DNA from: a bacterium
GTDB taxonomy: Bacteria; Hydrothermota; Tepidihabitantia; Tepidihabitantales; Tepidihabitantaceae
Length of the DNA stretch: 64,000 nucleotides
Direction of reading: 5' to 3'
NCBI GenBank assembly: GCA_035505375.1
Contig: DATJQV010000075.1
Location: 83,393-147,392 of the forward strand
A program made the translations under genes and the position numbers. The notes beneath the pieces were generated by a model. It saw nothing but the letters and a program-made list of their open reading frames with translations. It made no database searches and had not been told where the DNA came from. Positions 2,467 through 32,689 of the stretch are shown piece by piece; position 1 is the stretch's first letter; the number at the start of each line of letters is the position of its first letter.

Positions 2467-3837
2467 ATGAGCCACGCGAGCCAAAGACAAAGCAGTAAGG
2501 ACAAAGGATCAGGCAAGCCGGCAATGACAAAGGGCGAGAACTGGGTCTTTCTACTTCGGACTTGCTTTGTCCTTTGTACCTTGTCCTTTGGACTTTCACC
2601 GGCGGCGCAGCCGCGGCCGGCCGCGCCGGTGGACACGTTCCCGCGGGCCGACGTAGTGGCGGCGGCAAAGCAGGCGCTCGATGCCGCAAACCGCAGCTTC
2701 GGGCACTGGCTGACGATGATTATCATCGCCGTGCTGTTCGCGGCCGTGCTCGTCGCGTGGCGCATCTGGGCGCTGGGCCGGCGCCTGGCGCGAGTCGATG
2801 AACTGCGGGCGGCGTGGGATACGCGGTTTGCCGGGACGACCGACGAAGTGCTGCGGCTCAAGCGAAAACTGGCCGATGACGAAAGCAGGGCCGAGCGGCT
2901 CGAGATCGACATCGCCTCCCTGCGTCCGGACGGGCCCGACGCCGTGAAAGACCAGGTGGCGGCGGTCCAGTCCGAACTGGCGGCGCTGCGCGAGCGGCTC
3001 GACCGGGCCGAGGAAAAGCTCGATGCGTTCGCCGACCATACCGTGGTGACGCAGCAGGAACGGGCCGCGGTCGAGGAACTGGTCAGGACCGCAGGCCGGT
3101 CGCAAGACGCGGTCGAAGGATTGGTCAAGAGCGCGGGTCAGTCGCAGGCCGCGATTGAGAAGATGGTCCGTACCGCAGGCCAGTCGGAGGCCGCGGCTGA
3201 GAAGATGGCCCGGACCGCGGGCCAGTCGCAGACCGCGGTTGAAAAGATGGCCCGGGCTGCGGGCCAGGCACAAGCCGCGGCCGAGGCCGCAGCCGACCGT
3301 GCCGAGGCCATTGTAAAGCGGGCCGCGGCGAGGGACTCATTGCGCGCCGCCGACGAGAAACTCGCCAAACGGGAGTACCCGGCGGCGGTACGGGCCTACT
3401 CGCTGTGCCTCGAAGCGCTCGAAGGCAGCGGAGTCGAAGACGCGGGACTCCGGTTCCACGCATTCCACAACCGCGCGCTCGCCAACCTCCGGCAGCGTGA
3501 GTTTGATGCGGTGCTGACCGATGCCGCCACGATCGAGGCTTTCGCTTCGGCCGATGCGGGCGACGTCGACGCCGCACGGGCGCAGGGCGCGGCCAAACTC
3601 CTCGCCGGCGTCGCCCGGCTCTGGCAGGGCAAAGTGCCGCAGGCGCTGCAGGACCTTACCGCGGCGGTCGAGCGCGACGAAGGCGCGCGCGCGGCTCTGC
3701 AGCAGGACGAAGACATCGCGGCATGGATGGAGGTCAACACCAAAAAGGCCGCTCCGGTGAAACGGTTCATCCGCGCCGCGGCCAAAGGCCCCAAAGTCCC
3801 AAAGTCCAAGCCCTCCAGCCCCGACTCCGAGTCCTGA
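2467..3837 (+). CDS. membrane-anchored coiled-coil protein with tandem ~17-aa repeats (VRTAGQSQAAxEKMxRTAGQS...)
   Basis: One hydrophobic TM segment (IIIAVLFAAVLVAWRIW). Coiled-coil and Ala/Gln-rich repeats. Directly follows the SurA-like genes. No recognisable catalytic motif. Confidence 0.5.
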   Translation: MSHASQRQSSKDKGSGKPAMTKGENWVFLLRTCFVLCTLSFGLSPAAQPRPAAPVDTFPRADVVAAAKQALDAANRSFGHWLTMIIIAVLFAAVLVAWRIWALGRRLARVDELRAAWDTRFAGTTDEVLRLKRKLADDESRAERLEIDIASLRPDGPDAVKDQVAAVQSELAALRERLDRAEEKLDAFADHTVVTQQERAAVEELVRTAGRSQDAVEGLVKSAGQSQAAIEKMVRTAGQSEAAAEKMARTAGQSQTAVEKMARAAGQAQAAAEAAADRAEAIVKRAAARDSLRAADEKLAKREYPAAVRAYSLCLEALEGSGVEDAGLRFHAFHNRALANLRQREFDAVLTDAATIEAFASADAGDVDAARAQGAAKLLAGVARLWQGKVPQALQDLTAAVERDEGARAALQQDEDIAAWMEVNTKKAAPVKRFIRAAAKGPKVPKSKPSSPDSES

Positions 3838-3952
3838 CCCCCGATCTCTAGTCTCCAGTCCCTCGCCCCTCGTCCCTAATCCCCACCCCCAAGTCCTTCT
3901 TCCCCAACTTCTCGCTTCTCGCATCCAGCTTCTCGCTTCTGACTTCGTCTGC

Positions 3953-4140
3953 CTGCATTCTGGTCTCTGAATTCAGCTCTATCCGATGCCGTATCCGTGT
4001 TCATCAGTGTTCATCCGTGGTTCCCTATTCGAACTTCCCCGGCCGGGCATTCTGAATTCTGGACTCTGGACTCTGAATTCATCTCTATCCGGTGCCGTAT
4101 CCGTGTTCATCTGTGTTCATCTGTGGTTGATTCCCTCGGG
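3953..4140. repeat. MITE-like dispersed repeat, two tandem units; left inverted copy flanking the R-M island
   Basis: Units begin and end with CAGAGACCAGAATTCAGA-type inverted termini. The core ATCCGTGTTCATCNGTGTTCATCCGTGGTT recurs at 17641-17800 (inverted), 60465-60500 and elsewhere. Confidence 0.6.
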
Positions 4141-5181
4141 ACCTTGGTACTTTTGGCTGTCGGCTTTTGGCTTCTGACCTTTGACTTGCGTCCGCCTCCG
4201 CCGTCCGCACTTCTCGCCTCTAGCTTCTCTCTTCTGCTTCACCTGACTGCCGAGAACCATGAAATTCCTTCATTGACTGAGGGATTTTCATGGTGTCGGA
4301 TGTCCGTGGTCCAGCACAGAACCAACGTCCACGTCATCCCCCTGTCCCAACTGGTCGGCGCCAAGTAGTACAACTCCTCGCCGGCTGACCGTCCGCCCGC
4401 CCGATAGCCCCGCTTCTGCTAACCGCTCTCCGCCATCCTTCTCCCACCGTCCGTACTTCTAGCTTCTCGCATCTAGCTTCTGACTTCCGCTGACCGCTCG
4501 CTCGTAACCCGTTACCCGCTCTCCGCTAACCGCCACTCGGCCCCTCGAATCCTGCACTGTCAGACAGGGGTCGCTGCGGCCAATCCTGGGAGCCTCGTCC
4601 TATCAGCTAGCTACCGGTGTCAGGCAATTCGGCGGTCGTGGTTCGGCCTTTGGCGTTTCTATGGCGTCAGGAATGTCTTATCGCGTCCCCGGAATTACCC
4701 CGAAGGACGATACCCGAGGCGTTCTTCCATCTGTCGCGCCAGCCACTCGTAGGCCTGCCGATGTCTCCCTCGAACCCGCCGAGCATCTGCCCGCAATACA
4801 CCGTCCTTCTGCAGCTTGGACCATGCGCCGACCGTTTGAACCGTCCACAGCGTCACTTCTTTCGCGTGCCGCGCGTCTTCCTGACGACGCCGACAGTCAG
4901 CCATCCTCATCGCGGACATCGTAATGGCCGCGACAATGAAGTCAAGGCGGCGGGCGTGTTAAATAGGCGGATCGATCTCTAGTCGCCCTGCGACCAATCT
5001 GCAATCGACGATCTTGGACCCAGAATGAGAGGGTTCACTTAAATGAACCGCGTGGGGCGGGCAGCAGGGATTGGGACTCGGAACCGGAGTCTATGGACCA
5101 AGGACTGATTGACTTGCGCCAAGGGAGCGTGGCGTGTCAAATGGGCGGGCGGACAGGGAATCCTGCGGGCGATCGGCTGAG

Positions 5182-5858: not shown

Positions 5859-8800
5859 CTAGGCTGCGTCCTCTTTGTAGGTCAGGCCGAAAACGGTGTC
5901 GGCCAGCCACTTGCGGAAGTCGTCGTTGTCGCTGTACTGCTTGAACAGCTCGGTGTGGTCGGACAGAAGCTCAACCAGCACCCGCTTCAGGGCTTTGTCG
6001 TGCTCGATGCGGGCGTTCTGCTTATCCGAGTTCTTCATTGCATTCTGATACGCCTTATCCGCGCTGACTTTGGCCGGAATCTCCTGTGCTATGACGGCCC
6101 GAATCTTGTCGGCGTCCTTCCAGTCGATGTTGCCGAAGAGGTCGTTGAATGCCTTGAGGATGTTACTCAACTTGTCCATCTCCGGTTCAGGCTTGTGTCC
6201 GCCCTGTTCGACTGGAACCGGGCCGACTTCGCCATCTTGGTCAGGCAGTGCAATGGTCCGCGTCGACTGCATCTCCGCCCTGTAGCTGTCCATATCAACG
6301 GCATCGAGGATACCCTTGGCCAGGTCTTCTTCCTCGGGCGCCGGCAGCTTCGGTATCAGGAAGTTCAGGAATATCGACAGCTTCTCCCACGAAGCATTGG
6401 TATAGGGTAGCACGGTTGCCAGAAATGCGTAGGTGCGGACGAAGCTTTTAGCTCCGCCCTTGAAGCCAACCTGCCCGTCCTCATCCAGGTTCAGCTTGTA
6501 CACGGCGACGCAGGCATCGAGAATCGGGTCGAGCCGGTCGCGCTCAGCCCCGCCAAGGTACAGCTTCACCAAGTCTTCAACCTGGCTCCAATCATAGACC
6601 TGAGCTGCATCCAGCTTTGCCTTCAGATCGTGCAGCTTGTTGGGATCGGTTTCCTCGCTCAGAATCGTCGTCCGGTAGTAGGGCGCGAAGTCGCGCTGGA
6701 TTCCCTCGGTGGTGTTTGTGAAGTCGAGCACAAACGTGTCGTACTTGCCGGGCATCGCCCGGTTCAAACGCGAGAGGGTCTGAACCGACTTCACGCCCGA
6801 CAGAATCTTGTCCACGTACATCGTGTGCAGCAGCGGCTCGTCATAGCCGGTCTGGAACTTCTCGGCGCAGACCAGTAACCGGTACGGGTCTTCGCGGAAC
6901 CGCTCGGCAATCTGACTTCCGGGGGATCCGTTCATGGATGTCTCGCTCAACTTCGCACCCTTGAATTCGTGCTCTCCCGAGAATGCGACCAGAGCCTTGA
7001 ACGGCAGTTTCATCTCGCTGATGTAGCCGGCTATTGCCTGGTAGTACTCGATCGCCCGCACGATGCTGCCCGTGACAACCATCCCCCTTGCCTGCCCGCT
7101 TATCTTGTGCCGTGAGTATACCTGGTTCAGGAAGTGGTCGACGATGATCTCGGCCTTCTTCTCGATGGCATGCTCGTGGGTTTCGATGTAGCGCCTGAGC
7201 TTCTTTGCGGCCTTCCTCACGTCGTACTCGGGGTCGTCCGGCACGGTCTTCACCAAACGGTAGTAGTTGTTCACCGGCGTGTAGCCCTTGAGCACGTCGA
7301 GGATGAAGCCCTCCTGTATCGCCTGCTTCATTGTGTAGCTGTGGAACGGCCGGTGCTTGACCTCCTCGCCCTCGGCGTATGGCACGCCAAACATCTCAAG
7401 AGTCTTATTCTTGGGCGTGGCCGTGAAGGCGAAGTAGCTGGCATTGGAGAGCATCCGGCGCGATTCGATGATGCGGTTGATGGTATCTTCGTACGTCTCC
7501 TCTTCCGGTTCCTCGCCCTCGGGCGAGAGCGCGATGTTCATCTTGGCCGAGGTCCGACCGCCCTGGCTGGAGTGGGCTTCATCAATGATGATGGCGAACC
7601 GGCGGTTGCGATGCTCGCTGCCGATTTCCTCCAACACGAACGGAAACTTCTGCACCGTGGTGATGATTATCTTCTTGCCCGATTCGATGAACTGGCGCAA
7701 CTGCTGCGAACCTTCGGTCACAGCGCCTACGATCGCAGACACCTGCGCGAACTGCCTTATCGTGTCGCGTATCTGCTTGTCGAGCAGACGGCGGTCAGTG
7801 ACCACGATGGTGGAGTCGAAAGCCGGCTTCCCCTCCCGCTCCAGGCCGACAAGTTGGTGGGCCAGCCAGGCAATCGAGTTCGACTTGCCCGAGCCCGCCG
7901 AATGCTGAACCAAGTAGCGCTTGCCGACGCTGTCCGCCAGAGCGGCCGCCAGCAGCTTGCGCACCACATCCAACTGGTGGTATCGCGGGAAGATCTGCTT
8001 GCGCTTCTTCCGGCCAGTCCTTTCATCTTTCTCCTCGACTACCTGTGCGTAGTTCTCAATGATGTTGGTCAGGCCCTCGCGCGTCAGCGCCTCTTCCCAG
8101 AGATAGGCAGTCTTAAGCCCGTTCGGGTTGGGCGGGTTGCCGGCTCCGTCGTTCCAGCCCTTGTTGAACGGGAGGAACCACGAGGCCTCGCCCTTCAGGT
8201 GCGTACACATCATCACCTGCTGGTCGTCCACCGCGAAGTGCACCAGACACCGGCTGAACTCAAACAGCAATTCATGCGGGTTCCGGTCGCGCTGGTACTG
8301 CACGACGGCATCGTCCACGGTCTGTTTGGTCAGGCTGTTCTTCAGCTCGAATGTCGCTATCGGCAGGCCATTGATGAACAGACATAGGTCGAGCGCGCGC
8401 TGCGTCTCGTCGCGGCTGTAGCGCAACTGGCGCGTGACGCTGAAGACATTGGACTCAAACAGCCTCACTGCCTCTCTGTTGCCCAGTGACGGAGTGCCGT
8501 AGAACAGGTTCACCGAAGCAGGACCGTGCTGGATGCCCTTGCGCAAGACATCGATGACGCCGCGCCTGGCGACCTCCCCGCGCAGCCGGTCAAGGAACTT
8601 CAGCCGGTTCGGGCCATCCTCAGCCAGACCCAGCGTCTCAACCGCCTTGGGCTGGGTTGCGTTCAGGAACTCCAGCAAGCGAACAAGGTCAACCGCGTGC
8701 TCGCGGTCATAGTGCGCAGGGTCGCCCTGCACATACCCAGTCCCGCCGATGGTGCCGACCTCGGTAGCAACCAGTTCCCCGCCGGCGTTATCCATGCGCC

Positions 8801-8861
8801 GGCCAGTCATGGCCGCGACAATCAGGCTCTCGAGGCCCTTTTCGCTGGTATCGGTAGGCAT
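5859..8861 (-). CDS. hsdR: type I restriction enzyme R subunit (HsdR), 1000 aa
   Basis: SF2 helicase motifs: Walker A SAGSGKSN and DEAH box IIIDEAHSSQ. The N-terminal nuclease region and the length are typical of HsdR. Confidence 0.9.
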   Translation of the reverse strand: MPTDTSEKGLESLIVAAMTGRRMDNAGGELVATEVGTIGGTGYVQGDPAHYDREHAVDLVRLLEFLNATQPKAVETLGLAEDGPNRLKFLDRLRGEVARRGVIDVLRKGIQHGPASVNLFYGTPSLGNREAVRLFESNVFSVTRQLRYSRDETQRALDLCLFINGLPIATFELKNSLTKQTVDDAVVQYQRDRNPHELLFEFSRCLVHFAVDDQQVMMCTHLKGEASWFLPFNKGWNDGAGNPPNPNGLKTAYLWEEALTREGLTNIIENYAQVVEEKDERTGRKKRKQIFPRYHQLDVVRKLLAAALADSVGKRYLVQHSAGSGKSNSIAWLAHQLVGLEREGKPAFDSTIVVTDRRLLDKQIRDTIRQFAQVSAIVGAVTEGSQQLRQFIESGKKIIITTVQKFPFVLEEIGSEHRNRRFAIIIDEAHSSQGGRTSAKMNIALSPEGEEPEEETYEDTINRIIESRRMLSNASYFAFTATPKNKTLEMFGVPYAEGEEVKHRPFHSYTMKQAIQEGFILDVLKGYTPVNNYYRLVKTVPDDPEYDVRKAAKKLRRYIETHEHAIEKKAEIIVDHFLNQVYSRHKISGQARGMVVTGSIVRAIEYYQAIAGYISEMKLPFKALVAFSGEHEFKGAKLSETSMNGSPGSQIAERFREDPYRLLVCAEKFQTGYDEPLLHTMYVDKILSGVKSVQTLSRLNRAMPGKYDTFVLDFTNTTEGIQRDFAPYYRTTILSEETDPNKLHDLKAKLDAAQVYDWSQVEDLVKLYLGGAERDRLDPILDACVAVYKLNLDEDGQVGFKGGAKSFVRTYAFLATVLPYTNASWEKLSIFLNFLIPKLPAPEEEDLAKGILDAVDMDSYRAEMQSTRTIALPDQDGEVGPVPVEQGGHKPEPEMDKLSNILKAFNDLFGNIDWKDADKIRAVIAQEIPAKVSADKAYQNAMKNSDKQNARIEHDKALKRVLVELLSDHTELFKQYSDNDDFRKWLADTVFGLTYKEDAA

Positions 8862-9161
8862 TAGTACCTCACCATCAAGTGACCATCAAGTAGAGCTAGT
8901 TCAAACCAATGCGTTGACTCATAGACACTCATGGCCATAGACATGCTTCTACAGACTGCCGCCGTCAGGATGAGTATCAAGTTCTGCGTCTGGCTTCGAC
9001 TAGAGTCGCCATCCACTAATCCGGCCTCGCTCAGTCGGGATTGCGTTACCGAATTGCATCCGAATTGCATCCAGAGCACTCGCGCTCGTGGATTGGCTAT
9101 ATGCCGTAACATCCTAAAGCAAGATGACTTACCGAATCGCGGCTGGGCCGCCGTACATGGG

Positions 9162-10819
9162 TCATTGCCGTCCGGATTGCTGTTCGATTGCATCTGGGTC
9201 CGGACCAATGAACCACCGTCCGGATCTGGTCTTGCCCCGGCAATGAACGCGGTTCTCGGCCTTCAACTCGCGGAGCAATGTCTGCATTTGGGCGCGCGAC
9301 AGGCTCGGGTCATTCAGCGCGCCGAGCAACTCGCGGAGCGGGCTGCCCTGCCCCTTGAAGGCCTCCAGATGCTGTAGTACCAGCTCCTTCAACCGCGCCC
9401 GGTCCAGTCCCCGACGCCTTGTGTAGCCGGCCTTATCACCCATTGCCGCGTAGAGCTTCCTTGCCAACAGGTACTTCATGCCCCGGGCGCGTCCTGTAGT
9501 CTCAACCAACCCCATCTCCCTGAGTCCGGCCAGGCGCGGTGCCAGGTTTGCGGGAACCACCTCGCCGCGGCGCAGAAGGTCGAGCACCAACAGATCCTCC
9601 GTCTGGAACGAACGCACACGTTCAGCGCCTACACGTTCCAGAAACCGTAGGAATCCCTCGTCCTGCACTGCACCCTGAAGCGTAAGCATGACCTGGTGCT
9701 CGTCGGTGCCGTTGAAGTCGGGCAGAGGCTTACTCTCGCGGATGGCAGTCTCGTACATAACGTTGGCCCTTGCCCAGAACGTTCGACCAGGCCGCACTTC
9801 GCGAGCACCTCGGCAATGCGTCGGTTGCGTGGACTCTGCCTGTAGAGGATGTTGTCGCGGGTGATGCCGCTGGGAAACCCGCCCGGGCTGACTACTTCCA
9901 GTCGCCGTGGGTATTGTCGCACAAACACCGACTCGGCCATTCGGTAGTCGCGATGACTCACGGCGTTTAGCAGTGCCTCGCGTACCACGCGCTCGCTGAA
10001 CGTCGGAATGTCCCAGATGAACAGCCCGTCTTGGAAGTGCTGGCTGTCGTTACGCAGGTTGATGGTCTTCCACAACTCGTCATCGAACGAGAAGAACCCC
10101 TGTCTGTATTCCTTCCTGTCCTGCGCAGGCCCGGTCGCATCGCTGGAACGATACTCGAAGACAATCTCCGCTTGAGCAAGGTCCCGCCCGAGGGCCATGC
10201 GAGTACCCAGCAGGATCAACGCCGCGTAGGTCACGCGTCCGTCCACCAGAAGCTCCGCGTCCGACAGAAGCTGCCCAGTGGACATGCCAAGCAGGTCGGC
10301 GCGTCCCGACTTCCGGTTCCACCGCTCGCGCAGTCGCTCGATGGCAACCTGGTCGAGCGCGTCCAGCGTCGCCCCGGGGCATATCTCTGCCGAGAAATCC
10401 GGCCCGGTCTCATCGAAGATGCGCCGCAGCATGTCTTCCGTCATGGCGGTCAGGCTATCACCTGAGCGCATCCAGTAGACACCGTCGTACCGCAACGGTA
10501 CGCCGATCGGCCGGGACGGTACATCGAACACGACCACCCGTCCGTGTGGGTGCTGAACCTCGACGCCGTCAATCCGCAGGTGCAGTATCTGAGTCAGGTC
10601 GCACCTGCGGTGCTCCAAGTCGCGGAAAGCATCAGTACCGACCACGCGGCGCGGCTTGAGGTTCGTAACACCAAGGATGAGCTTGCCGCCACGCTCGTTG
10701 GCCAGGGCGCAGCAGTACTTCCGCAGTTTCTCGATGTTGAAGTCGTGCTCGGCCTTCTTGAACTCAAGATGCTCGTCTTCCTCCGTCAGAAGCAACTCGT
10801 TCAACTGCTCAGCGGTCAT
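9162..10819 (-). pseudogene. RecG-like/Schlafen AlbA_2 (divergent AAA) + HATPase-type putative transcriptional regulator, split by a frameshift near 9765-9778
   Basis: ORF 9629-10819 encodes the AlbA_2 N-domain and ATPase-like region and runs out of frame after ...CGLVERSGQG. ORF 9162-9797 (GTG start) continues the same protein family (ANVMYETAIRESKPLPDFNGTD...) in another frame. The junction lies in a GGG/CCC run. Confidence 0.65.
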
Positions 10820-10915
10820 CTACTTCATCTCCGCATACAGCCGCCCGTTCGCAGTTCTCCGGATTCACCAACGTCTCCGCATCCTCGTGGAGGATGTCCC
10901 CGCTAGTGAACTCCA

Positions 10916-12367
10916 TCACTCCTCGCCCTCCGCATCATGGCTTGCGAGAGCTTCCTCGTTCGCCTCCTCCAATTCCTCCGGCGCTTCCGCCTCCGGTTCC
11001 TCAACTTCCTCCGTCTCATCCGGCAGATTCGTGGCGGCTTCGCGCACGTCCAGTTTGCCTGTCACCACGTCCGCCACAAGCCGAGTCCGGTACTCGCGTA
11101 GAAGGAGCACCTCAGCCTCCACTCGGGCTATTGCGGCATCCAGCGCAGCGGTCTGTGCCGCTATGTGCTCAAGCAAGCTCTTCTGTTCCGCAATCCCCGG
11201 CAGCAGAATCGGAAACGCGCGCAAGGTTGTGCTGTTTGTAGAGGCGAGATTCGTGGTCTGCTTAGCTGTCAGTTGGAAGTAGGCACGCCCATGCATGGAC
11301 ACCATGAGGCCTTCAAGGAACTCGGGAATCATGATGTCCTGTCTGCAACGGACGGCGAAAATGTGATTCTGGTGCAGGCAGTTCGGAATCTCGTCATGCC
11401 ACACACAACCGCGGCCGAGCTCGTCGATGTCTCCTCCCTCGGTCATCAGAACGTCTCCAGCACGCAGCGTCGCGCCGGATGCCTCTTTCACAGGGACGCT
11501 GATGTGCTTGATATGTCCGAGGTCAAGGCGGCCGGCTTGAACGTTAGCCACGCGGAGGTAGGGTCGTGACTCAATGGTGACTCCTTCGTAGCGCTTCCCA
11601 AGTGTTAGTCCGGTCTGCACGGTCGCCGCGTCTTTGAGCCGAGCAATTCTCCAATGCTCAGGTATGCCTCCCAGCCAAGCGACCCCGGACGGTTTGTACT
11701 TTGGATACGGCTTCCCAGTGCGGACGTCAATCTGACCGGTCACGGCCTGGTGGATAATGGCTTGCTTCTGCTCGTTCAGCCGCGCAATCAGCCTCTGCTT
11801 CGCCCGGATGTACTTCCGAATCCGCCGGTCAACGTGGTCAAGGTAGCGCACGATGGCGGATTGCTCCGCCAGAGGCGGTTTGCACGATACGATCATCCTG
11901 AAGTGCTCGGGCCTGAGGCTCCACATATCTGACGTGATGCCGTAGGACCAACGTTCCGCCTCCTTGGCGAAAACCGGAGTTCGCATGAGGTAGTGGAAAT
12001 AGCGCGGACTCGATCCCTCGCGCGGGCGCTGCACGACGTATGCAGGGCTAACGATTCCACGTAGGTCGGACACTCCGACCGCACCTTGCCATGCCCGCAT
12101 CTTGTTGTAAGCGATGTCTCCGGGACGAACGAGCTTGTAGGCGGACTTGTCCAGATTCGAGCCGTCCTTCTTCGAGCTATCTGCCAGCAATGCTTGCTGA
12201 CGAATCACGCCCCTCGTGATAGTCACGGACAGCATCGGTTCGTCTGGATGGTCGCGCTCTTTGACTTCGGCGAAGAGGGCGCGGTTAGGCAACACATCCC
12301 AATGCTCCGGCACGTCTCCCAGCCACGGCACGCCGGAAGGCTTGTAGGATGGGTAGGGTGTTTTCAA
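10916..12367 (-). CDS. hsdS: type I restriction-modification specificity subunit (HsdS), two target-recognition domains
   Basis: Duplicated YPSYKPSGVPWLG / YPKYKPSGVAWLG motifs with conserved central and C-terminal coiled-coil spacers typical of HsdS. Confidence 0.85.
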   Translation of the reverse strand: MKTPYPSYKPSGVPWLGDVPEHWDVLPNRALFAEVKERDHPDEPMLSVTITRGVIRQQALLADSSKKDGSNLDKSAYKLVRPGDIAYNKMRAWQGAVGVSDLRGIVSPAYVVQRPREGSSPRYFHYLMRTPVFAKEAERWSYGITSDMWSLRPEHFRMIVSCKPPLAEQSAIVRYLDHVDRRIRKYIRAKQRLIARLNEQKQAIIHQAVTGQIDVRTGKPYPKYKPSGVAWLGGIPEHWRIARLKDAATVQTGLTLGKRYEGVTIESRPYLRVANVQAGRLDLGHIKHISVPVKEASGATLRAGDVLMTEGGDIDELGRGCVWHDEIPNCLHQNHIFAVRCRQDIMIPEFLEGLMVSMHGRAYFQLTAKQTTNLASTNSTTLRAFPILLPGIAEQKSLLEHIAAQTAALDAAIARVEAEVLLLREYRTRLVADVVTGKLDVREAATNLPDETEEVEEPEAEAPEELEEANEEALASHDAEGEE

Positions 12368-12373
12368 GCCTGT

Positions 12374-13312
12374 TTATTTCGCTATCGGAACGCCATACTG
12401 AAGAAGCAGGCTTTCAAGGTGCCGACCATCGATGAGCCTGACCATTTTCATCTCGGGGCGGTTGGCCTCCTTGATGGCCCCCGCGCTGAACTCCCCAGAC
12501 GTAACAACCATGCACTCGGCCGGGCCTGCGGCCCCTCTGATCTTCTGTATATCTGGAGCCTGCACTTTGGCCTTCCAGTGCTTCACCTGCACTTTGACGG
12601 CGACCGTGCCGCCCGAATCCAGCGGACGGTGTCCCTCGACATCTACTCCGCGGTCGTGCGTCGCTGGGGTCACGACGACGCGATCGTAGCCAACTGCCGA
12701 AAGGAGATCTCCCACCAGTTGTTCAAGTTGCGTTGGCGACAGGCTGCGCAATCCGGCCGGAGCCATTGGTGTGGCAGGAGCGCCTGCCTGTGAAGCTGGG
12801 CTGGGCGTGGACATGCCGACCAAACCCACTGCTCCCCCGGCAAGACGCACGAACCGGGGTTTCTCGCCGCGCGCGACGCGGTCTCGGGTGTCCTGATAGA
12901 CGCGCCCAAGAACCATGTTCTCAAACTTCCCGCTCCGCGAGGAGAACAGCTTCTGGCTGGTGATCTCTGCAGCCAACTCCTTCGCCGTCATAGGATGTCC
13001 AACGGACCGCAACACATGTTCTACGGCACCGAGTATCTTCATCGGCCCGCGTGGCACGGTCGTGACCGCCTCCCTGTCGGCAGGCTGCTCTGACGCCAGC
13101 CTGAACAAGCCGCCTCGTGAGCCGTGCCGAAAGCGCGAGGCGGAACCATTGCTCTTCGTGTCCGCGCATAGCCTCGACCCCACGACATGCCCGAAGTCCT
13201 TGGCGGTTGGCAGAAAGAGCTTCTGCGACACAATCCTCTTGGCGATCTCTCGGTAGTGCAGCTCGACTCGCGCTTGGGACAGCACTTCGTGGGCCGCGTC
13301 TAGAATCTCCAT
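12374..13312 (-). CDS. mrr: Mrr-like type IV restriction endonuclease with two N-terminal winged-helix (HARE-HTH / Mrr_N) domains and a C-terminal Mrr_cat PD-(D/E)xK domain
   Basis: Two repeats of a ~90-aa wHTH module. The C-terminal region has the D...(E/D)xK signature (DRGVDVEG...VKVQVKHW). Embedded between hsdS and hsdM, a known arrangement. Confidence 0.65.
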   Translation of the reverse strand: MEILDAAHEVLSQARVELHYREIAKRIVSQKLFLPTAKDFGHVVGSRLCADTKSNGSASRFRHGSRGGLFRLASEQPADREAVTTVPRGPMKILGAVEHVLRSVGHPMTAKELAAEITSQKLFSSRSGKFENMVLGRVYQDTRDRVARGEKPRFVRLAGGAVGLVGMSTPSPASQAGAPATPMAPAGLRSLSPTQLEQLVGDLLSAVGYDRVVVTPATHDRGVDVEGHRPLDSGGTVAVKVQVKHWKAKVQAPDIQKIRGAAGPAECMVVTSGEFSAGAIKEANRPEMKMVRLIDGRHLESLLLQYGVPIAK

Positions 13313-13429
13313 TGCGTTGCCTCCTTCGTCATCTCCGCAATCTCTTCCTCCGCTTTCGGGCTTCGTCTAGCTCATGGGGCGGCGGGCCAGCGTACATTGA
13401 GACCGTGCCTGCAAAGAACCGGCGCGGCG

Positions 13430-15556
13430 TCACTCCAACGCCTCCTTGAGCAATCCTTCGGTCTCCTTCTCCAGTGCCGCGATGTCGGCCTTGATCTCTT
13501 CAAGAGTCCGAAGCGGCTGGGGCTTGTAGAAGTAGCGGTTGAAGCTGATTTCGTAGCCAATCTTGGTCTTGGATTCGTCTATCCAGGCGTCCTTGGCATA
13601 AGGCAGGACCTGGCGTTGGATGAAGGCTTCGATGCCACCGTCTTCAAGCAAAGGCACTTGCTCGGTGTCGCGTAGCTCCGTATCCGGTTCGTACTCGACG
13701 GCATACTGCCTGCCGACAACCATGGCCTCGAACAGACCGCGCAGAGGATCCACCTTCGTCTTGAAGAGCGGGTACGCCTTCTTGACGACAGGCACCCCGT
13801 TCTCATCGCGCTCAGCCAGGTTGTTCTTGAGCAGGTTCTCTCGCTTCACGGGGAAGTAGAAATCTTCCTTCAGTGCTGCCTTGCGTGCTTCTGTCAGGAA
13901 GGCATTGAAGTCCATGTGCGGCCCTGAGCCGAGTGATTCGGCCAGCTTGTCGGCAAAGGCAGGCAGATCCTCGTCCTTGGCCTTGGCGCAGGCAAACTTG
14001 AGCCGCGCTCGGCTGGCGTGGTTGAACTCGACCTTGAGCCTCAGCGGACGCTCGACCGTGACCTTCCAGTAGCCGAAGGCCTCGTTCGGAAAGACCTTGG
14101 ACTGCTCGGTCTCTTTGAACTCAAGGAAGGTGTCGGCGATCCGCCTGATGTCAGCATCCGAGAGCCGGCAGTTCTTCTTGCCGAGGTTCTTTCGCAGAGG
14201 CTCGAACCACTGGGTCGCATCGATAAGCTGAACCTTGCCTTTGCGATGCTCGGGTTTGCGGTTGGAGAGGAGCCAGATGTAAGTGGCGATACCGGTGTTG
14301 TAGAAGATGTTGAGTGGGAGCGCGATTATCGCTTCCAGCCAGTCGTTCTCGATTATCCAACGCCGGATGTTACTCTCGCCCTGTCCCGCGTCGCCGGTGA
14401 AGAGCGACGAACCGTTATGGACCTCGGCGATGCGGCTGCCGAGCCTGGTGCCGACCTTCATCTTGCTGAGCATATTGGCAAGGAACATCATCTGGCCATC
14501 GCTGGAACGGGTCACGAGCGAATACTCCGGGTCGCCTGCGTGAGTGATGATGAATCGCGGGTCCTTGATGCTGTCCTTGCCGCCCATCTTCTCCATGTCG
14601 TTCTTCCAGCTCTTGCCGTAGGGCGGGTTGGAGAGCATGAAATCGAACTTCAGGCTGGCAAACCCGTCATGGGAAAGCGTGGACCCAAAGACGAAGTTGT
14701 CGGCCTCTTCACCCTCGCCCTTGAGCACCAGGTCTGCCTTGCTGATGGCATAGGTCTCGGGTTCGACTTCCTGACCGTAGAGGTGAATCGAGGGGTCCTT
14801 GCCGTGGTCCTTGGCCATATCGAGCAGACGTTGCTCGGACACGGTTAGCATCCCACCGGTCCCGCACGCGCCATCGTACACGAGGTACGCGCCGGACACG
14901 ACCTTGTCCGCCACCGGCTTAAGCACAAGGTCGGCCATGAGCGTTACAATGTCGCGGGGCGTGAAGTGCTCGCCTGCTTCTTCGTTGTTCTCTTCGTTGA
15001 ACCGGCGGATGAGTTCCTCGAAGATGGTGCCCATGCCGTGGTTGTCGAGTCCGGGCAGGCGCTCAGAGCCGTCACTGTTCAGCGCAGGCTTGGGGCTGAG
15101 GTTGATGGACGGGTCGAGGAACTTCTCAATCAGGCCGCCGAGGATGTCGGCTTCCACCAGAGTCGGCACCTGGTTGCGGAACTTGAACTTCTCGATTATC
15201 TCCTGGACGTTAGGCGAGAAGCCGTCGAGGTACGCCTCGAAGTCGGCCTTGAGTGTCTGCGCCCGGCCACGGGAGCGCAAGTCGCGAAGCATGAACGCAG
15301 AGGCGTTGTAGAACGACTGCCCGGCTGCCTGTCGCAGCGGCGCTTCCTGGCTGGAGATCTTCGACTTGTCGAGGCGATCCTTCATGTCGAGCACGGCCTT
15401 CTTGGTTGGCTCCAGCACGGCATCCAGCCGCCTGATGACCGTCATCGGCAGGATGACGTCGCGGTACTTGCCGCGTTTGTAATAGTCGCGGAGCACGTCA
15501 TCGGCGATGCCCCAGATGAAGTTGGCAATCCAGTCCAGTTGTGTCGGTTCCATCAC
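13430..15556 (-). CDS. hsdM: type I restriction-modification DNA methyltransferase subunit (HsdM, N6-adenine)
   Basis: HsdM N-terminal domain (MMEPTQLDWIANFIWGIADDVLRD...). SAM-binding region and catalytic NPPYG motif (LSNPPYGKSW). Confidence 0.9.
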   Translation of the reverse strand: MMEPTQLDWIANFIWGIADDVLRDYYKRGKYRDVILPMTVIRRLDAVLEPTKKAVLDMKDRLDKSKISSQEAPLRQAAGQSFYNASAFMLRDLRSRGRAQTLKADFEAYLDGFSPNVQEIIEKFKFRNQVPTLVEADILGGLIEKFLDPSINLSPKPALNSDGSERLPGLDNHGMGTIFEELIRRFNEENNEEAGEHFTPRDIVTLMADLVLKPVADKVVSGAYLVYDGACGTGGMLTVSEQRLLDMAKDHGKDPSIHLYGQEVEPETYAISKADLVLKGEGEEADNFVFGSTLSHDGFASLKFDFMLSNPPYGKSWKNDMEKMGGKDSIKDPRFIITHAGDPEYSLVTRSSDGQMMFLANMLSKMKVGTRLGSRIAEVHNGSSLFTGDAGQGESNIRRWIIENDWLEAIIALPLNIFYNTGIATYIWLLSNRKPEHRKGKVQLIDATQWFEPLRKNLGKKNCRLSDADIRRIADTFLEFKETEQSKVFPNEAFGYWKVTVERPLRLKVEFNHASRARLKFACAKAKDEDLPAFADKLAESLGSGPHMDFNAFLTEARKAALKEDFYFPVKRENLLKNNLAERDENGVPVVKKAYPLFKTKVDPLRGLFEAMVVGRQYAVEYEPDTELRDTEQVPLLEDGGIEAFIQRQVLPYAKDAWIDESKTKIGYEISFNRYFYKPQPLRTLEEIKADIAALEKETEGLLKEALE

Positions 15557-15715
15557 GAACCCTCTTTCTTACCGATAGGCCAGTCAATCACGCGGAGGTT
15601 ATAGCCGGAAAGCTCGCCGCAGTCAGGCGCGTGCCGTAGAACCTAGCAGTCGTCAGTGCCGCCGGGAGCGGCAGGGCTGTCGCTCTGTGGCAGATTCGTC
15701 GATTAGGCGTCCTCG

Positions 15716-16168
15716 CTAGCGACGTACCACCGGGAGGACAAGCGGCGGAAGGCCCATGCGCACGACAGTGCTTTGTACGTACTCGCGGAAGTATGGCCAA
15801 GTGTTCAGGGGGAGGTTGTTCGTGCAGAAGATCTGGAAGTAGTCCTTGGTCATCGGCTTTGCGACTCGGTATACGACCTCGAATGTGCAGCTGATTCGCA
15901 GTAGAGGTATCTTGGGTTCATCCTTGTACGCCGCCATGAAAACGCAGGTCTGAATAACCTTGCATGTTGCCTCGCCCTCCATCTGGAATGAGACTTTGTC
16001 TTCGATCCCCAGGTCCATCTCACGTTTGAAGTCGACTTTGTCTACGAGAAGCTCTGCGGATAGGGCCCGAGCCGCGATGTTCAGCAGATCGAGCCCCCGA
16101 ATGAACTCGGCATACTCCCTGGGGCTTACTTTCGGGCGTGCGGGCCGCTTGACCGCGGTTGCACTCAT
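15716..16168 (-). CDS. hypothetical protein, translationally coupled downstream of hicB
   Basis: Its start ATG overlaps the hicB stop by 4 nt (ATGA), with an AGGAAGG RBS. 150 aa with no recognisable family. Confidence 0.45.
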   Translation of the reverse strand: MSATAVKRPARPKVSPREYAEFIRGLDLLNIAARALSAELLVDKVDFKREMDLGIEDKVSFQMEGEATCKVIQTCVFMAAYKDEPKIPLLRISCTFEVVYRVAKPMTKDYFQIFCTNNLPLNTWPYFREYVQSTVVRMGLPPLVLPVVRR

Positions 16169-16725
16169 ATTGCCGCCTTCCTGTGGAAACTTATGTTGCC
16201 GGGGTCAGGGAGTGCGAACTCGCTGCCCCCGCATGATACACCGGCCAAACCCCTGAGCTGCTTGCGGGCGTTCCATGGATCACGAAGCACTATCTCTTCG
16301 AGGTCATCTCTCAAACGGTCAGCGGTGGACAGAGTTCTGGACAGACGAACGTCAAGCGCGTGCGTCACTACGCCCTGAGCGAGTACGACAGCCACAAACT
16401 GGTTTAGACTCGTTCCTTGCTCCTCTGCCTGTCTCGCAAGCTGGCGATGCAGAGCGGCCGGCAGGCGAACGACGAACTTGCCCGAGAATTCCCTTGCTTC
16501 CTCGGGCAGTGGTATCTCGATGTTTGACTGGTAGGCTTCCTCCAGCCAGAGTTCTCGCGCTTCCTTGATGTTGGCCATTGCCTCCTCTAGTGTTTCGCCT
16601 TGAGTCATACAGCCGGGCAGGTCCGGCACTGACACGAAGTACCCGCCTTCCTCCTGCTCATGCACCTGCACGGGATACTTCAGGTTCACGTAGTAGGCCA
16701 AGTCCTTCTCATTCCTGCGGTTCAT
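16165..16725 (-). CDS. hicB: HicB-family antitoxin with C-terminal extension
   Basis: N-terminal HicB/UPF0150 domain (YPVQVHEQEEGGYFVSVPDLPGCMTQGETLEEAMANIKEA). This is followed by an RHH-like DNA-binding segment (GKFVVRLPAALHRQLARQAEEQGTSLNQFV). Confidence 0.7.
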   Translation of the reverse strand: MNRRNEKDLAYYVNLKYPVQVHEQEEGGYFVSVPDLPGCMTQGETLEEAMANIKEARELWLEEAYQSNIEIPLPEEAREFSGKFVVRLPAALHRQLARQAEEQGTSLNQFVAVVLAQGVVTHALDVRLSRTLSTADRLRDDLEEIVLRDPWNARKQLRGLAGVSCGGSEFALPDPGNISFHRKAAI

Positions 16726-16957
16726 CTGTTGCCTCCAGGTCCAGCGTCGTGATAATGTCCTTTAAGTACGATTTCTTGTAGGATTTGCTGTGTGTGGCCA
16801 AGACGAGCCGGCGACCATTATCGCCCCAAATCTCGTGACTGCCTTTTGTTCTTCGCAGAGTCCATCCAAAGTGTTTGAGTATCGCTCGTACGTCTTGGCA
16901 TGCCATCTCGGCAGGCCTCGAAAGAAGTCGAGCGACGAGCTTCTTGACGCTGGACAA
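16709..16957 (-). CDS. hicA: HicA-family mRNA interferase toxin
   Basis: 82 aa with the conserved HicA core ...RTKGSHEIW... Overlaps hicB by 17 nt. Confidence 0.8.
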   Translation of the reverse strand: MSSVKKLVARLLSRPAEMACQDVRAILKHFGWTLRRTKGSHEIWGDNGRRLVLATHSKSYKKSYLKDIITTLDLEATDEPQE

Positions 16958-17289
16958 CGTCCCATGATACTACCCTTAGTATTAGATGTCAACATCGGAG
17001 TTGTGGATTCGTGTGGGCCCGCCATGAAATGGCCGGCTAGCCAGGTCCGCTGGTTTGGACACCTTCGCTGATCACGTGGAGTGTACCAGAGTGGTGTAGT
17101 GCCTTAGCCCGCAAGTTGAGCGGAAGCATTGGGCCTGGGGGCTAGCCTCTTCGGAACTCCAGGCAGGACATCTTGCCCAATGCTATGCGCCTCCGCCGGC
17201 CGCTGCGGAAGCACGATGGTCGACGTTGGCGGCTCTCGGTCACCCCCCCCTGCCCGAAGCCTGCAACCTGCGTTTGAGGTTTGCATTTC

Positions 17290-17530
17290 GCAGTTATCCA
17301 CGCGCTTCCGGTACAACAGCAATTATTAGCAAAAGAACCTGTTGCTGCTGTTGGGATGTGGATAATGTGGATAACTCACAATTTCTACCATTAGTAGTAT
17401 CAACCACTGTACACTACCACTAGTGGTTGATTATCCACATAGTTATCCACATCCTGTCCACATTCATCCACCATTTGGCCATTCCGGCCAGATACCACCT
17501 ATTGTATCCACCGAGTTATCCACACCACTA
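17290..17530. promoter_or_regulatory. cluster of DnaA boxes in a locally AT-rich segment (candidate replication origin or DnaA-titration/regulatory locus)
   Basis: Five perfect consensus boxes: TGTGGATAA x2 (17357-17365, 17366-17374) and TTATCCACA x3 (17431-17439, 17443-17451, 17516-17524). At least four 1-2-mismatch boxes (17294, 17454, 17464, 17504). The surrounding ~200 bp is markedly AT-rich relative to the window. A 9-bp inverted repeat TCAACCACT...AGTGGTTGA lies at 17399-17430. Confidence 0.6.
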
Positions 17531-17640
17531 CAGATAGGTGTTGACATTGGAGTCCTGTCCGGCATTGTTGGTTAATGACCGATGAGAAATCCGTTTCAGA
17601 CACCGGGCTATTCCCCGGGCAGTCCCGGGGCCTGCCCCCT

Positions 17641-17800
17641 AGCGAAGGCATGGGAGAAATCAGAATTCAGAGACCAGAAACCAGAATTCAGAATGCCCGG
17701 CCGGGGAAGTTCGAATAGGAAACCACGGATGGACACAGATGAACACGGATACGGCATCGGATAGAGCTGAATTCAGAGACCAGAAACCAGAATTCAGATA
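17641..17800. repeat. MITE-like dispersed repeat, inverted copy (right flank of island)
   Basis: The reverse complement matches 3953-4070 at ~95% over ~115 bp, including both CAGAGACCAGAATTCAGA termini. Confidence 0.6.
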
Positions 17801-17826
17801 CGCTGACGAAGAGCCAGGATGGCGGT

Positions 17827-18429
17827 TCAGCGCCTGCGTCGGCGCCGATCGCGAGCGACGAAGTCCGAGCCTGAGCCGGTGTGGCCGGGTTTGTCGTCGT
17901 CGGTGATGAATCCGATACGTTTCTTCCTTGGCGCAGGCGGCAGCATGAGCTGTTTGATAGTGGCAAAGACCACCTGGAAGTTCCGGTCGTGCGTGGCCAG
18001 CTTGCGTTCAAGTTCGGCGAGCTTGATGGCGAGCTGTCGCTGGTCGGCCAGCATGCGACGCATTCGTATGAACGCCCTCACCACAAAGACGCTGACATCG
18101 ACCGCCCGTTTGGATCGCAGGACGCTCGCGAGCATGACAGTTCCATGTTCCGTGAATGCGTAGGGGCGACTTGACGAGTGCCTGAGCGCCACCAACCGGT
18201 CGCATTTTGCGACCAGTTCATCCTTCTCATCGAGTGTCAACTCGAACATGAAACCTTCGGGGAATCGTTCCCGGTTGCGCCGGACTTGTTCCTTCAGTCG
18301 GCGGGTCGTGACGCCGTAGACTTCGGCCAGGTCGACGTCCAGCATGACACGTTCGCCACGTATCTCCAGAATGGCACTGTCTATTCGCTCGGCGGGGATG
18401 AGGTATCCGGAGTCTTTGGGCGCGGTCAC
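17827..18429 (-). CDS. ORF6N (KilA-N-like) DNA-binding domain protein
   Basis: The N-terminal ~110 aa matches the ORF6N/antirepressor-like fold (LEIRGERVMLDVDLAEVYGVTTRRLKEQVRRNRERFPEGFMFELT). Typical of phage/mobile-element cargo. Confidence 0.65.
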   Translation of the reverse strand: MTAPKDSGYLIPAERIDSAILEIRGERVMLDVDLAEVYGVTTRRLKEQVRRNRERFPEGFMFELTLDEKDELVAKCDRLVALRHSSSRPYAFTEHGTVMLASVLRSKRAVDVSVFVVRAFIRMRRMLADQRQLAIKLAELERKLATHDRNFQVVFATIKQLMLPPAPRKKRIGFITDDDKPGHTGSGSDFVARDRRRRRR

Positions 18430-18570
18430 GGGCCTAGGATACCGGCGAAGGGTGCTGAGTCAAGGCGCGGCGCGGGAATTCCCGGCGACGCAATAGGCGA
18501 TTCCCGCAGAAGGGGGTCCAGGATTCAAGGATCCGAGGAATCTAGTGGCGGGTGGCGGGCACCGGATGGT

Positions 18571-18636
18571 TCAGAAGTCAGAAACCAAAACGCGAGACGG
18601 GGAACAATCCAGAATCCAGAAACCAGAATTCAGAGT
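18571..18636. repeat. partial copy of MITE-like repeat family (terminal module)
   Basis: CAGAAGTCAGAAACC...CCAGAATCCAGAAACCAGAATTCAGAG, near-identical to segments at 20861-20935 and 21056-21100. Confidence 0.5.
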
Positions 18637-18717
18637 TGCCCAGGAAAGGAATCGAGAGATCGAGGGAGAGGGTGCGCGGCTTGCCATCGGAGAGAATCTG
18701 GCTATCATCTGGCCAGA

Positions 18718-19029
18718 ATGAAGTACCGGGTCGCATTCGCGCCCGAAGCCCTCGATGATTACCGCCGCCTCTCGGCCCGAACCAGGGCCGAAGTCAGGGA
18801 TGCCATCAACCGGCACCTGCTGCACCAGCCGACCCGGTTGAGCCGAAGCAGTATCAAGCGGCTGCGTGGGACCCGGAAGCCGCAATACCGCCTGCGCGTC
18901 GGGGACGTGCGCGTCTTCTACGACGTGCGAGAGGATGAGGTGGTGGTGCTGGCTGTTGTTGAGAAATCGCGCGCTGCGGAATGGCTTGAGAAGACTGGAG
19001 AATTCGATGAAGAGAGTAGCGCTGGCTGA
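18718..19029 (+). CDS. RelE/ParE-family type II toxin
   Basis: 103 aa: MKYRVAFAPEALDDYRRL...YRLRVGDVRVFYDVREDEVVVLAVVEKS. Typical RelE/ParE fold signature. Confidence 0.75.
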   Translation: MKYRVAFAPEALDDYRRLSARTRAEVRDAINRHLLHQPTRLSRSSIKRLRGTRKPQYRLRVGDVRVFYDVREDEVVVLAVVEKSRAAEWLEKTGEFDEESSAG

Positions 19030-19330
19030 GGTAAAGGACCACCTTTCCGAGTATCTGAACGAGGCGGCAGAGGAGGAAGTCGTCATCACCCGACATGGCC
19101 GTCCGGCCGGTGTGCTCATCGGCTTCGCCGGCGAGGACGACTGGTTCGACTACCGGCTGGAGAACGATCCGCGGTTTGTCGCACGGATCGCGAGGGCGCG
19201 GGGTAGTGCCCGGGCCGGGAAGGCCATTCCGTGGGAGGACGTGCAAGCGGGCGCGGAGTCGGCCTCGGGCGGGTTCAGCGTTTCAGACCGGCCGGCCACA
19301 CGTTCACCCAGGCGGCGAAGCCGCACTTAG
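19007..19330 (+). CDS. Phd/YefM-family antitoxin (toxin-first arrangement, overlaps toxin by 23 nt)
   Basis: MKRVALAEVKDHLSEYLNEAAEEEVVITRHGRPAGVLIGF... The internal ATG is in the same frame as the listed ORF 18866-19330. Confidence 0.6.
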   Translation: MKRVALAEVKDHLSEYLNEAAEEEVVITRHGRPAGVLIGFAGEDDWFDYRLENDPRFVARIARARGSARAGKAIPWEDVQAGAESASGGFSVSDRPATRSPRRRSRT

Positions 19331-19570
19331 CAGCCGGGCGCTGGCCGCGAGACACTGTCCTTCGTACGTCGTCCATCGTTCTTCGTCCTGAGTCTACTGT
19401 CCACAGTCCATAGTCCGTCCGTCTCCTCGTCCTTCGTCTGAGCTCTCTGCGTCATCTGCGCAATCTGCGGTTAGTCTTCTCCGGCCTGGCGGTTAATCCA
19501 TTTTCGATTGACGATTGCCGATTTCAGATTGCCGGACCGGTATCCGAAGCGGAGAGCGGTCGGCGGACTG

Positions 19571-19700: not shown

Positions 19701-19701
19701 G

Positions 19702-32684: not shown

Positions 32685-32689
32685 CTTGC

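Follow-up and report, generated by a model that had tools for sequence, protein, structure and literature searches.

A mosaic family of CAGA-heptad and decamer repeats in the intergenic spacers of an uncultured bacterium, possibly akin to REP and BIME elements

We analysed a stretch of 64,000 nucleotides (nt) of bacterial DNA (contig DATJQV010000075.1 of assembly GCA_035505375.1, positions 83,393 to 147,392; hereafter the window, numbered from its first letter) and, within it, a family of short repeats that lie in the spacers between genes. Read in the CAGAAT orientation, every copy of the basic unit, which we call an arm, is about 50 nt long and consists of a head, CCGGA(T/C)A(G/A)(T/C) (CCGGAYARY), a run of tandem heptads and a tail, TGC(C/G)GG (TGCSGG). 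Window arms hold three to six heptads of the composition Y-C-A-G-A-R-W, that is, N-CAGA-NN with a CAGA core and three free positions. A second type of arm is built of exactly three decamers (CATCNGTGTT x3) and terminates in GTGGTT. Heptad and decamer modules are joined by short, CCGG-rich, non-periodic linkers, and arm length is about 30–35 bp regardless of the period (5x7, 3x10 or 3.5x8). The family is an interspersed mosaic of few modules (heptad arms, decamer arms, a block described below and linkers) in direct and inverted order; in the window the order of arms is direct, while relatives often have inverted pairs.

Two sites, 3950–4128 and 17660–17800, are direct arrays in the order heptads, linker, decamers, head, heptads. 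The outermost heptad arm of the first array has three heptads (TCAGAGA CCAGAAT GCAGGCA, 3950–3970, minus strand) and was found by a tract detector and by R1, a search model described below (3936–3986, expectation value (E) 9.3e-8). It is followed by the head and junction CGGCATCGGATAGAGCTGAAT (3971–3991, minus strand, read from the sequence; the junction is identical to 17752–17772), a decamer arm found by core search (3992–4022, plus strand, spelled TATCCGTGTT CATCAGTGTT CATCCGTGGTT on that strand) and the non-periodic linker GCCCGGCCGGGGAAGTTCGAATAGGG (4023–4048, minus strand), an exact match to 17695–17719 bar one extra terminal G. Next come four heptads (4049–4076, minus strand; tract detector; R1 4042–4090, E 1.3e-12) and, on the same strand, the head CGGCACCGGATAGAGATGAAT (4077–4097) with a second decamer arm (4098–4128; sequence and core search). 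The second array begins with five heptads (17660–17694, plus strand; tract detector; R1 17652–17701, E 5.1e-17) and the linker GCCCGGCCGGGGAAGTTCGAATAGG (17695–17719, plus strand; sequence and self-BLAST). A minus-strand decamer arm (17721–17751; AACCACGGATGGACACAGATGAACACGGATA in plus-strand spelling; core search) and the head CGGCATCGGATAGAGCTGAAT with four heptads (17752–17800, heptads at 17773–17800, plus strand; tract detector; R1 17757–17798, E 7.6e-12) complete it.

The next four sites lie on the plus strand. At 18544–18636, the block AGTGGCGGGTGGCGGGCACC and the head CGGATGGT precede three heptads (18571–18591), the insert GCGAGACGGGGAACAAT and four heptads (18609–18636), a composite detected by both the tract detector and R1. 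The head CGGACAAT with three heptads follows at 20766–20794 (tract detector; R1 20765–20796, E 6.1e-6). An octamer tract, (GAGGAGTC) x3.5 (20810–20837; Tandem Repeats Finder, TRF), stands before the block of a second composite at 20843–20935, which comprises the block AGTGGCGGGCACC, the head CGATAGT, three heptads, an insert and five heptads (20901–20935); it is 81% identical to 18544–18636 and was likewise detected by R1. At 21039–21100 we found the block AGTGGCGGCCACC, the head CGGACAAC and six heptads (21059–21100; R1 21061–21107, E 2e-16). Two further arms have five heptads each: one with the head CCCGGATAAT (32690–32734, minus strand; tract detector; R1 32688–32735, E 6.4e-13), the other with the head CCCGGACAAT (60401–60445, plus strand; tract detector; R1 60400–60447, E 4.3e-15). 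In the latter site, 60401–60495, the decamer arm is flipped (CATCTGTGTT TATCCGTGTT CATCTGTGGTC, 60465–60495, plus strand, opposite relative orientation), and this arm is kept in two loci of relatives, L048 and L049. A remnant of two heptads and a tail (TCAGAAT GCAGAAT TGCC) lies at 59541–59559 on the plus strand.

An earlier interpretation, made from the letters alone (the sequence-only reading), had listed these sites and taken the units for miniature inverted-repeat transposable elements (MITEs). Its picture of a dispersed, multi-copy, non-coding family in intergenic spacers stands. The 18-mer CAGAGACCAGAATTCAGA matches the window 16 times with up to three mismatches (versus 0.02 expected), and the 30-mer ATCCGTGTTCATCNGTGTTCATCCGTGGTT, rightly named as the core, occurs three times (versus 0 expected) with a rearranged fourth copy at 60465–60495. 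Self-BLAST of four units connects all listed sites. R1 is a sequence-only model trained on 27 aligned arms, all from genomes other than that of the window, and was run with filters off. It retrieved 12 arms with E from 5e-17 to 5.5e-5, among them matches at 20894–20936, 18606–18640, 20854–20879 and 18561–18587, and it also detected the weak trace suspected near 59.5 kb (59541–59559, E 0.0065). TRF returned period-7 rows at every site, confirming head-to-tail units of 7 nt. The proposed second conserved block, AGTGGCGG(G/C)CACC, was recovered in front of the heads of 18544–18636, 20843–20935 and 21039–21100 (at 18544–18563, 20843–20855 and 21039–21051). Since an independent contig in the European Nucleotide Archive matches window positions 11671–33188 at 100% identity, the repeat-rich stretch is no assembly artefact. 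The inverted termini of the sequence-only reading, however, dissolved: tract matches are one-stranded in each copy, and 17668–17692 and 17774–17798 form a direct repeat of 25 nt. The impression of inversion arises because the palindrome CTGAATTCAG (GAATTC) forms where ...CAGAAT meets TCAGA....

Copies had also been placed within 60 bp of start codons, which is true only of the copy at 32690, 5 nt before the ATG at 32684. The commoner neighbour is a stop codon. The stop of a 4Fe-4S gene (60389–60391) is followed after 10 nt by the head at 60401, and the stop at 32745–32747 adjoins the head at 32734, whose tract (32690–32734) fills the 60-nt spacer up to the real start at 32684 and separates two DUF3857/transglutaminase genes. 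A further tract lies 27 nt downstream of the stop at 17827. Elements of relatives fit tightly between genes as well, beginning 0–15 nt past stop codons. Relative to transcription, the window copies lie in both orientations. The idea that the element carries a promoter survived in part: one copy stands just upstream of a conserved sigma-70-like promoter, but the promoter itself is outside the repeat. This promoter (TTGACG-16-TACAAT, 60519–60546, plus strand; conserved in L048 and L049) serves an Omp28-like gene, and the decamer arm at 60465–60495 ends about 23 nt upstream of its -35 hexamer. The heptad arm of 18544–18636 lies 45 nt upstream of a promoter-like site (18681–18708) before the ParE start at 18718. 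Downstream of the first array there is a terminator-like 17-nt inverted repeat with a T-run (4256–4294); with it, the array would constitute a 3' untranslated region (UTR) of about 430 nt of the gene at 2467–3837.

In sense orientation the tracts are open in all three frames, and gene callers therefore extend real genes through them. The sequence-only reading had anticipated such spurious N-termini for the open reading frames (ORFs) beginning at 32741 and 60450, and we add a third case, 18178–19029. The ORF 30684–32741 translates the tract (MQARIIQNSETRIQSAECK-MQGAKWLAVL...) and appears in public gene calls as a 685-aa product; in its orthologues, which have no such tract, the signal peptide begins at about the position that corresponds to 32684. 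ORF 60450–60734 leads from a linker into the true N-terminus of the next gene, and ORF 18178–19029 is an extended ParE with its real ATG at 18718. The cost to annotation is thus a set of false starts, at 30684–32741, at ParE (18718) and at the gene starting at 60636. A coding interpretation of the repeat was rejected, since a 7-nt period cannot keep the reading frame and orthologues occur without the tract. Short-read assemblies are interrupted by the repeats as well. One contig of this organism, assembled from short reads of a different sample (L040), ends inside the repeat at window position 4020, and another (L131) begins at 21360, 260 nt beyond the last arm (21100), both consistent with a family that is multi-copy throughout the genome.

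Copies at loci 13 kb apart are closely similar: 17668–17790 aligns with 4075–3953 at 93.5% identity over 123 nt, including an identical non-periodic linker. Between genomes, matches are limited to the periodic arms. To judge from these alignments, copies inside one genome have evidently been homogenised or amplified. Orthologous sites turn over. At the DUF3857/transglutaminase junction the tract is missing from three orthologous loci (L043, L044 and L045) and is replaced by (GAGGATTC)n, by (AGGGTCCA)3.5 or by a vestige of one heptad only. Behind the 4Fe-4S gene, where the window has five heptads, L049 carries six of the same family, L048 has (CAGTTTG)4 instead and L047 a different 9–10-mer tract. 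Neither of these two orthologous spacers offered a clean empty site, as relatives carry other short-period tracts, another heptad number or a vestige. Cores and decamers persist across species. The orthologous tract of L049 keeps the cores and has most free positions changed, and the decamer arm of L048 equals the window copy at 3992–4022 bar one position, the neighbouring protein being only 89% identical. In content-blind TRF tracts of the family, all variant cells fall in the three positions between CAGA cores. Applied to all heptad families of the window, a test for non-uniform decay gave a weak excess of invariant columns (106 versus 99.4), and the constraint argument therefore covers this CAGA family and not every tract. 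Three samples yielded assemblies in which the tract at 32.7 kb is 100% identical, and this leaves a hypermutable contingency locus unsupported.

We take the organism to be an uncultured WOR-3-like bacterium: proteins of the window carry Por_Secre_tail and FlgD_ig domains, and the best named orthologue of one of them belongs to candidate division WOR-3. Scanning GTDB species representatives, among which the window's own genome is absent, for CCAGARACCAGAATTCAGA yielded 39 loci, against a calculated chance expectation of about 9. About as many matches as chance predicts were isolated and in coding DNA; the rest run into heptad tracts. Some 22 loci are found in WOR-3-like or unnamed metagenome-assembled genomes (MAGs) of 59–66% G+C with the same head and tail, and several of these then carry the same decamer module. 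The family is thus homologous across the WOR-3-like lineage and not genome-specific, as had been supposed. Loci in Bacteroidota, Alphaproteobacteria, Ignavibacteria, Acidobacteriota and Anaerolineae have the same heptads and no head. The commonest form in relatives is an inverted pair, CCGGATAGT-(heptad)5-TGCCGGCA-(heptad')5-ACTATCCGG, and the modal heptad number there is five (12 of 20 arms, which were not picked by the search pattern). R1 gave four matches over 423 kb of other loci, all in close relatives, and none in about 330 kb of unrelated metagenome contigs. The window holds about one arm per 5 kb and L043 and L044 none in 40 kb, so abundance is lineage-dependent. A phage origin was rejected, as the 19-mer had no match in viral contigs.

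Folding separates paired from unpaired arms: a strong hairpin is predicted only in the paired state. Paired elements of relatives fold strongly (z about -7), with a helix of CAGA:UCUG blocks between frequently mismatched positions. Window copies range from -1.8 to +1.8, and structured RNA was rejected for them because they fold no better than shuffled sequence. For sense tracts z is +1.4 to +1.8, a degree of structure below that of shuffled sequence. Scanning the window for inverted repeats whose arms lie at most 150 nt from each other returned no pair of this family. Rfam 15 gave no window match at gathering score and only chance-level ones at E <= 5; on the loci of the paired elements it found tRNAs only.

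We read the copies as a modular, interspersed, REP/BIME-like mosaic repeat that is built of short-period tandem tracts and is not derived from a transposon; this composite interpretation of the sequences, including the function proposed for it, has in our judgement about an even chance of being right. On this view the arms would be arrays recognised by a putative trans-acting factor, which could be a nucleic-acid-binding protein of the host or an enzyme dedicated to copying them. They may spread by duplicative copying or gene conversion, supplemented by slippage of heptads. Paired arms could work as hairpins, between cistrons or at 3' ends, through which transcripts are terminated or stabilised, and the single arms of the window would be largely passengers in 3' UTRs and promoter-upstream DNA, with a demonstrable effect on ORF calling and assembly. 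Several points weigh against the proposal. No trans-acting factor or copying enzyme was identified. Neutral or selfish DNA would account for the rapid turnover of orthologous sites as well as function would, and the mixed orientation to transcription in the window means that one RNA-level role cannot cover all copies. In a partner-swap control, arm complementarity was 0.693 within pairs versus 0.685 between different elements (n=11). For the consensus fold, Alifold gave a positive covariation term, with 3 of 34 pairs having any compensatory change. A precisely selected hairpin in the paired elements was therefore demonstrated neither by complementarity nor by covariation, as compensatory evolution appeared in neither analysis. 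Finally, the tract detector uses CAGA and is circular for the core positions; the content-blind TRF result and the R1 search are independent of it.

It is unlikely, on the features seen, that the arms are instead DNA-level binding arrays for a nucleoid-associated protein or global regulator, as Aklujkar et al. proposed for Geobacter (IHF/HU). Like the RNA-level alternative below, this would be a specific account of how the repeats work. An invariant core with free spacer is typical of reiterated protein sites, arm length holds whatever the period, and the arms of a pair evolve independently, all of which would suit such arrays. So would the helical-repeat period of the decamers and their position upstream of a conserved promoter, together with the tract 45 nt upstream of the ParE promoter-like site. 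The 7-bp period, however, is not helically phased, many copies are far from any promoter, conservation at the level of sites is poor and no binding protein is known.

We consider it similarly improbable that the copies would work as RNA-level cis elements, either as 3'-UTR or intercistronic hairpins (terminators, exonuclease barriers or RNase III sites) or as reiterated single-stranded protein sites. Examples would be periodic recognition in the style of HutP or TRAP, or the S1, Csp or CsrA binding that MacGregor proposed for TAACTGA repeats. Elements that start 0–15 nt after stops and fill the spacers of co-directional and convergent genes point in this direction, as do the strong folding of the paired forms and the sense orientation of about 10 of 13 single arms in relatives. 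The low structure of sense tracts and the placing of the first array between a stop codon and the terminator-like hairpin at 4256–4294 would also agree with it. Against this stand the two orientations of the window copies and the want of covariation, of an Rfam match and of a T-run after the hairpins.

Neutral microsatellite-type DNA, with polymerase slippage preferring units of 7 nt and with tracts that form and degrade where they stand, having neither function nor a copying mechanism, is a decidedly unlikely account of the family. It has real observations on its side. In window spacers the self-match at lag 7 is 0.321, with echoes at lags 14 and 21, whereas neighbouring lags give about 0.265; coding DNA, with a 3-nt period only, gives 0.262. 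With the repeat family masked, it is still 0.310, and 7-base periodicity is therefore a general feature of this genome's spacers. Many other, unrelated heptads form tracts too (TRF), some with a shared GATAG head; heptad number differs between orthologues (5 versus 6); perfect heptad runs occur in signal-peptide and linker coding DNA; and the slippage idea has been published (Mrazek 2007, as cited in PMC4692102). Yet variation in the CAGA family is restricted to three of seven positions, the number of heptads is modally five, and the tract at 32.7 kb, identical in three samples, is not hypermutable. Plain slippage debris is further opposed by the conserved head and tail, the constrained cores, the recurrence of identical non-periodic linkers at loci far apart and the decamer arm, which agrees between species bar one position.

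Least probable is a transposon. That the copies are non-autonomous deletion derivatives of a DNA transposon, mobilised by a transposase that acts in trans and binds their terminal inverted repeats (TIRs), is very unlikely, and the MITE reading as originally worded is ruled out by the data. Short length (about 50–190 nt), multiple copies, intergenic location, near-identity of the copies within the genome, absence of the element from some orthologous sites and a copy density that differs strongly among related genomes are all as expected of MITEs. Termini, however, are direct and not inverted, boundaries are fuzzy and orthologous sites that look 'empty' contain different periodic tracts or another number of heptads. 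Target-site duplications (TSDs) were sought and not found: of eight paired elements of relatives, one (L037) has a 6-nt flank repeat, compatible with chance, and the window flanks have none. No transposase is present among the approximately 30 window proteins scanned with Pfam (64 kb of the genome), a DDE_3 gene in L044 is not flanked by arms, and viral contigs contain no match to the pattern. An integron attC array was rejected for copies among toxin–antitoxin (TA) genes, since these are direct arrays with no hairpin, no integrase is among the scanned proteins and copies also lie outside that island.

Other short-period tracts occur in the window. After each of five paralogous FlgD_ig/type IX secretion system (T9SS) genes there is a second heptad family headed GAGATAG, (AGACAGN)x5 (41076–41150, 43517–43600, 46310–46400, 49135–49215 and 59196–59236). 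The TAG of the head is the stop codon in three of the five paralogues read (ends 41078, 46322 and 49162); TAA is the stop codon of the paralogue that ends at 43517. Behind the tract comes a GC-rich hairpin (tcggggcggcc...ggccgcccc), and after three paralogues there is also (CGGTNCA)x4 (43611–43641, about 46425 and about 49240) ending in CGGATAG, CGGATGA or CGGACAG. Within long ORFs, heptad tracts were seen in a nitroreductase-like ORF (22095–22127), in the signal-peptide region of 30684–32684 (32629–32655), in an orthologue's signal peptide as a perfect (TTTTGGC)x3.7 (L044 11997–12022) and in a called metH gene as (GAGGAGA)+(TCAGTCC)x6 (L044 16563–16632), which suggests that heptad tracts also arise in tolerant coding segments. 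Unrelated to the repeat family are 156-nt coding tandem repeats in two secreted beta-propeller/FlgD_ig proteins (53631–54658 and 57782–58644) and Glu/Ala/Lys/Arg-rich units of 42–108 nt (36438–37760) in a TPR protein (35154–37976).

Most repeat copies of the window lie between the small genes of a defence and TA island at 5859–20709. It encodes a type I restriction–modification HsdR (5859–8861), a Schlafen/AlbA_2 protein (9629–10819), Mrr (12374–13312), HsdM (13430–15556), HicB (16165–16725), ORF6N (17827–18429), ParE/Phd (18718–19330) and Fic (19702–20709). Tandem 11–12-mers (CTTGACTAATA) at 19571–19593, 19653–19683 and 21187–21221 repeat a -35-like TTGACT, and one such tract yields a promoter-like TTGACT-17-TAGACT right before the Fic gene at 19702. 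The Omp28-like T9SS gene (60636–62417) has an in-frame TGA (60732–60734) in the motif GG-*-PYCPGAARG. The L048 orthologue (1103–1342) keeps it (TW-*-PYCPGAARG), and we read it as probably encoding selenocysteine in a U-x-x-C redox motif. The ORF list cuts this gene into 60450–60734 and 60798–62417.

Beyond the mosaic-repeat reading, we tentatively put forward a broader possibility, to which we attach low confidence: the arm (head, five CAGA-N3 heptads and tail) and its decamer partner may represent a widespread, not yet characterised class of cis-element. By analogy, its reader could be an oligomeric nucleic-acid-binding protein in the manner of HutP or TRAP, or a nucleoid protein that covers about 35 bp; the alternative would be an enzyme dedicated to writing and copying the element. 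If true, this would account for the same heptad array in WOR-3, Geobacter, Bacteroidota, Ignavibacteria and Acidobacteriota. The precise sequence definition and the search model make phylogenetic profiling for a cognate protein, and mapping of metatranscriptomes, feasible.

Comparison with described repeats places the family among several partial likenesses. MITEs such as Correia, RUP and ERIC have TIRs, TSDs and a parent insertion sequence (IS). In size, number of copies, placement between genes and consequences for annotation the family here is like them, but no TIR, TSD or parent IS was seen. The REP, BIME and REPIN elements known from Enterobacteria and Pseudomonas are short repeats interspersed between genes, mosaics of a few module types in alternating orientation that are homogeneous within a genome. 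They are found between cistrons and at 3' ends, have neither TIR nor TSD and fold into hairpins if paired. The family shares with them the interspersed intergenic mosaic of modules, the position in the genome, the homogeneity within a genome and the lack of TIR and TSD; for its paired form in relatives, strong hairpins are predicted. A REP unit is a single imperfect palindrome with a GTAG head that is recognised by RAYT (Y1) transposases. Each arm here, in contrast, is a tandem array and no palindrome, and the head CCGGATAGT resembles the GTAG head loosely.

Heptad repeats as such have been met before, and to our knowledge none of those of Geobacter, of Xanthomonas and Nostoc or of the TAACTGA type has been explained experimentally. 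The STRR heptanucleotides of cyanobacteria are comparable intergenic repeats. A literature search for the exact sequence strings gave nothing relevant. In Xanthomonas (GGGAATC) and Nostoc (GGGGAYT), intergenic DNA holds an excess of heptameric simple sequence repeats, some as inverted pairs (Rehm et al. 2015, PMC4692102). As here, these are intergenic heptad tracts, at times inversely paired, that the same genes flank across species while length and sequence vary. They are, however, G-rich and quadruplex-forming with up to dozens of copies, whereas the tracts here are A-rich and modally five, with a conserved head and tail. TAACTGA heptamer direct repeats have a patchy, cross-phylum distribution in Beggiatoaceae, Cyanobacteria and Bacteroidetes, with S1, Csp or CsrA proposed as binders (MacGregor 2015, PMC4679880). 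They resemble the arms in being heptamer direct repeats of 2–6 copies, intergenic, patchily distributed and of a mechanism that is not known. TAACTGA sets stand a few nt upstream of start codons and are almost never inverted, whereas the present arms more often follow stop codons and are frequently paired in relatives.

The closest counterpart was described in G. metallireducens, where eight pairs of sites each consist of five tandem MTYCTGA heptads on opposite strands (Aklujkar et al. 2009, PMC2700814). These were named 'class 3 predicted global regulator binding sites', with IHF/HU suggested and their function conjectured (PMC2700814, Additional file 9). The heptad is the same, as MTYCTGA is the reverse complement of TCAGRAK, and both families are intergenic and multi-copy with about five tandem heptads. 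The Geobacter pairs, on opposite strands and about 85–115 bp apart, match the paired arms of the WOR-3-like relatives; such pairing is absent from the window. The Geobacter alignment shows no CCGGATAGT head, and that genome has eight pairs only. Unlike them, arms of the window occur unpaired or as direct arrays, coupled with a decamer arm and the AGTGGCGGGCACC block. The heptad array itself is therefore already published, in 2009 and for Geobacter, and still unexplained. What is new here is that head and tail are defined, that the heptad arm has a decamer partner, that arms form direct arrays, that the family occurs in WOR-3 and that the arms do not co-evolve as hairpins. Heptad hairpins are found in several other phyla, and a heptad array with a CAGA core now also in an uncultured phylum, with a defined head, tail and partner.

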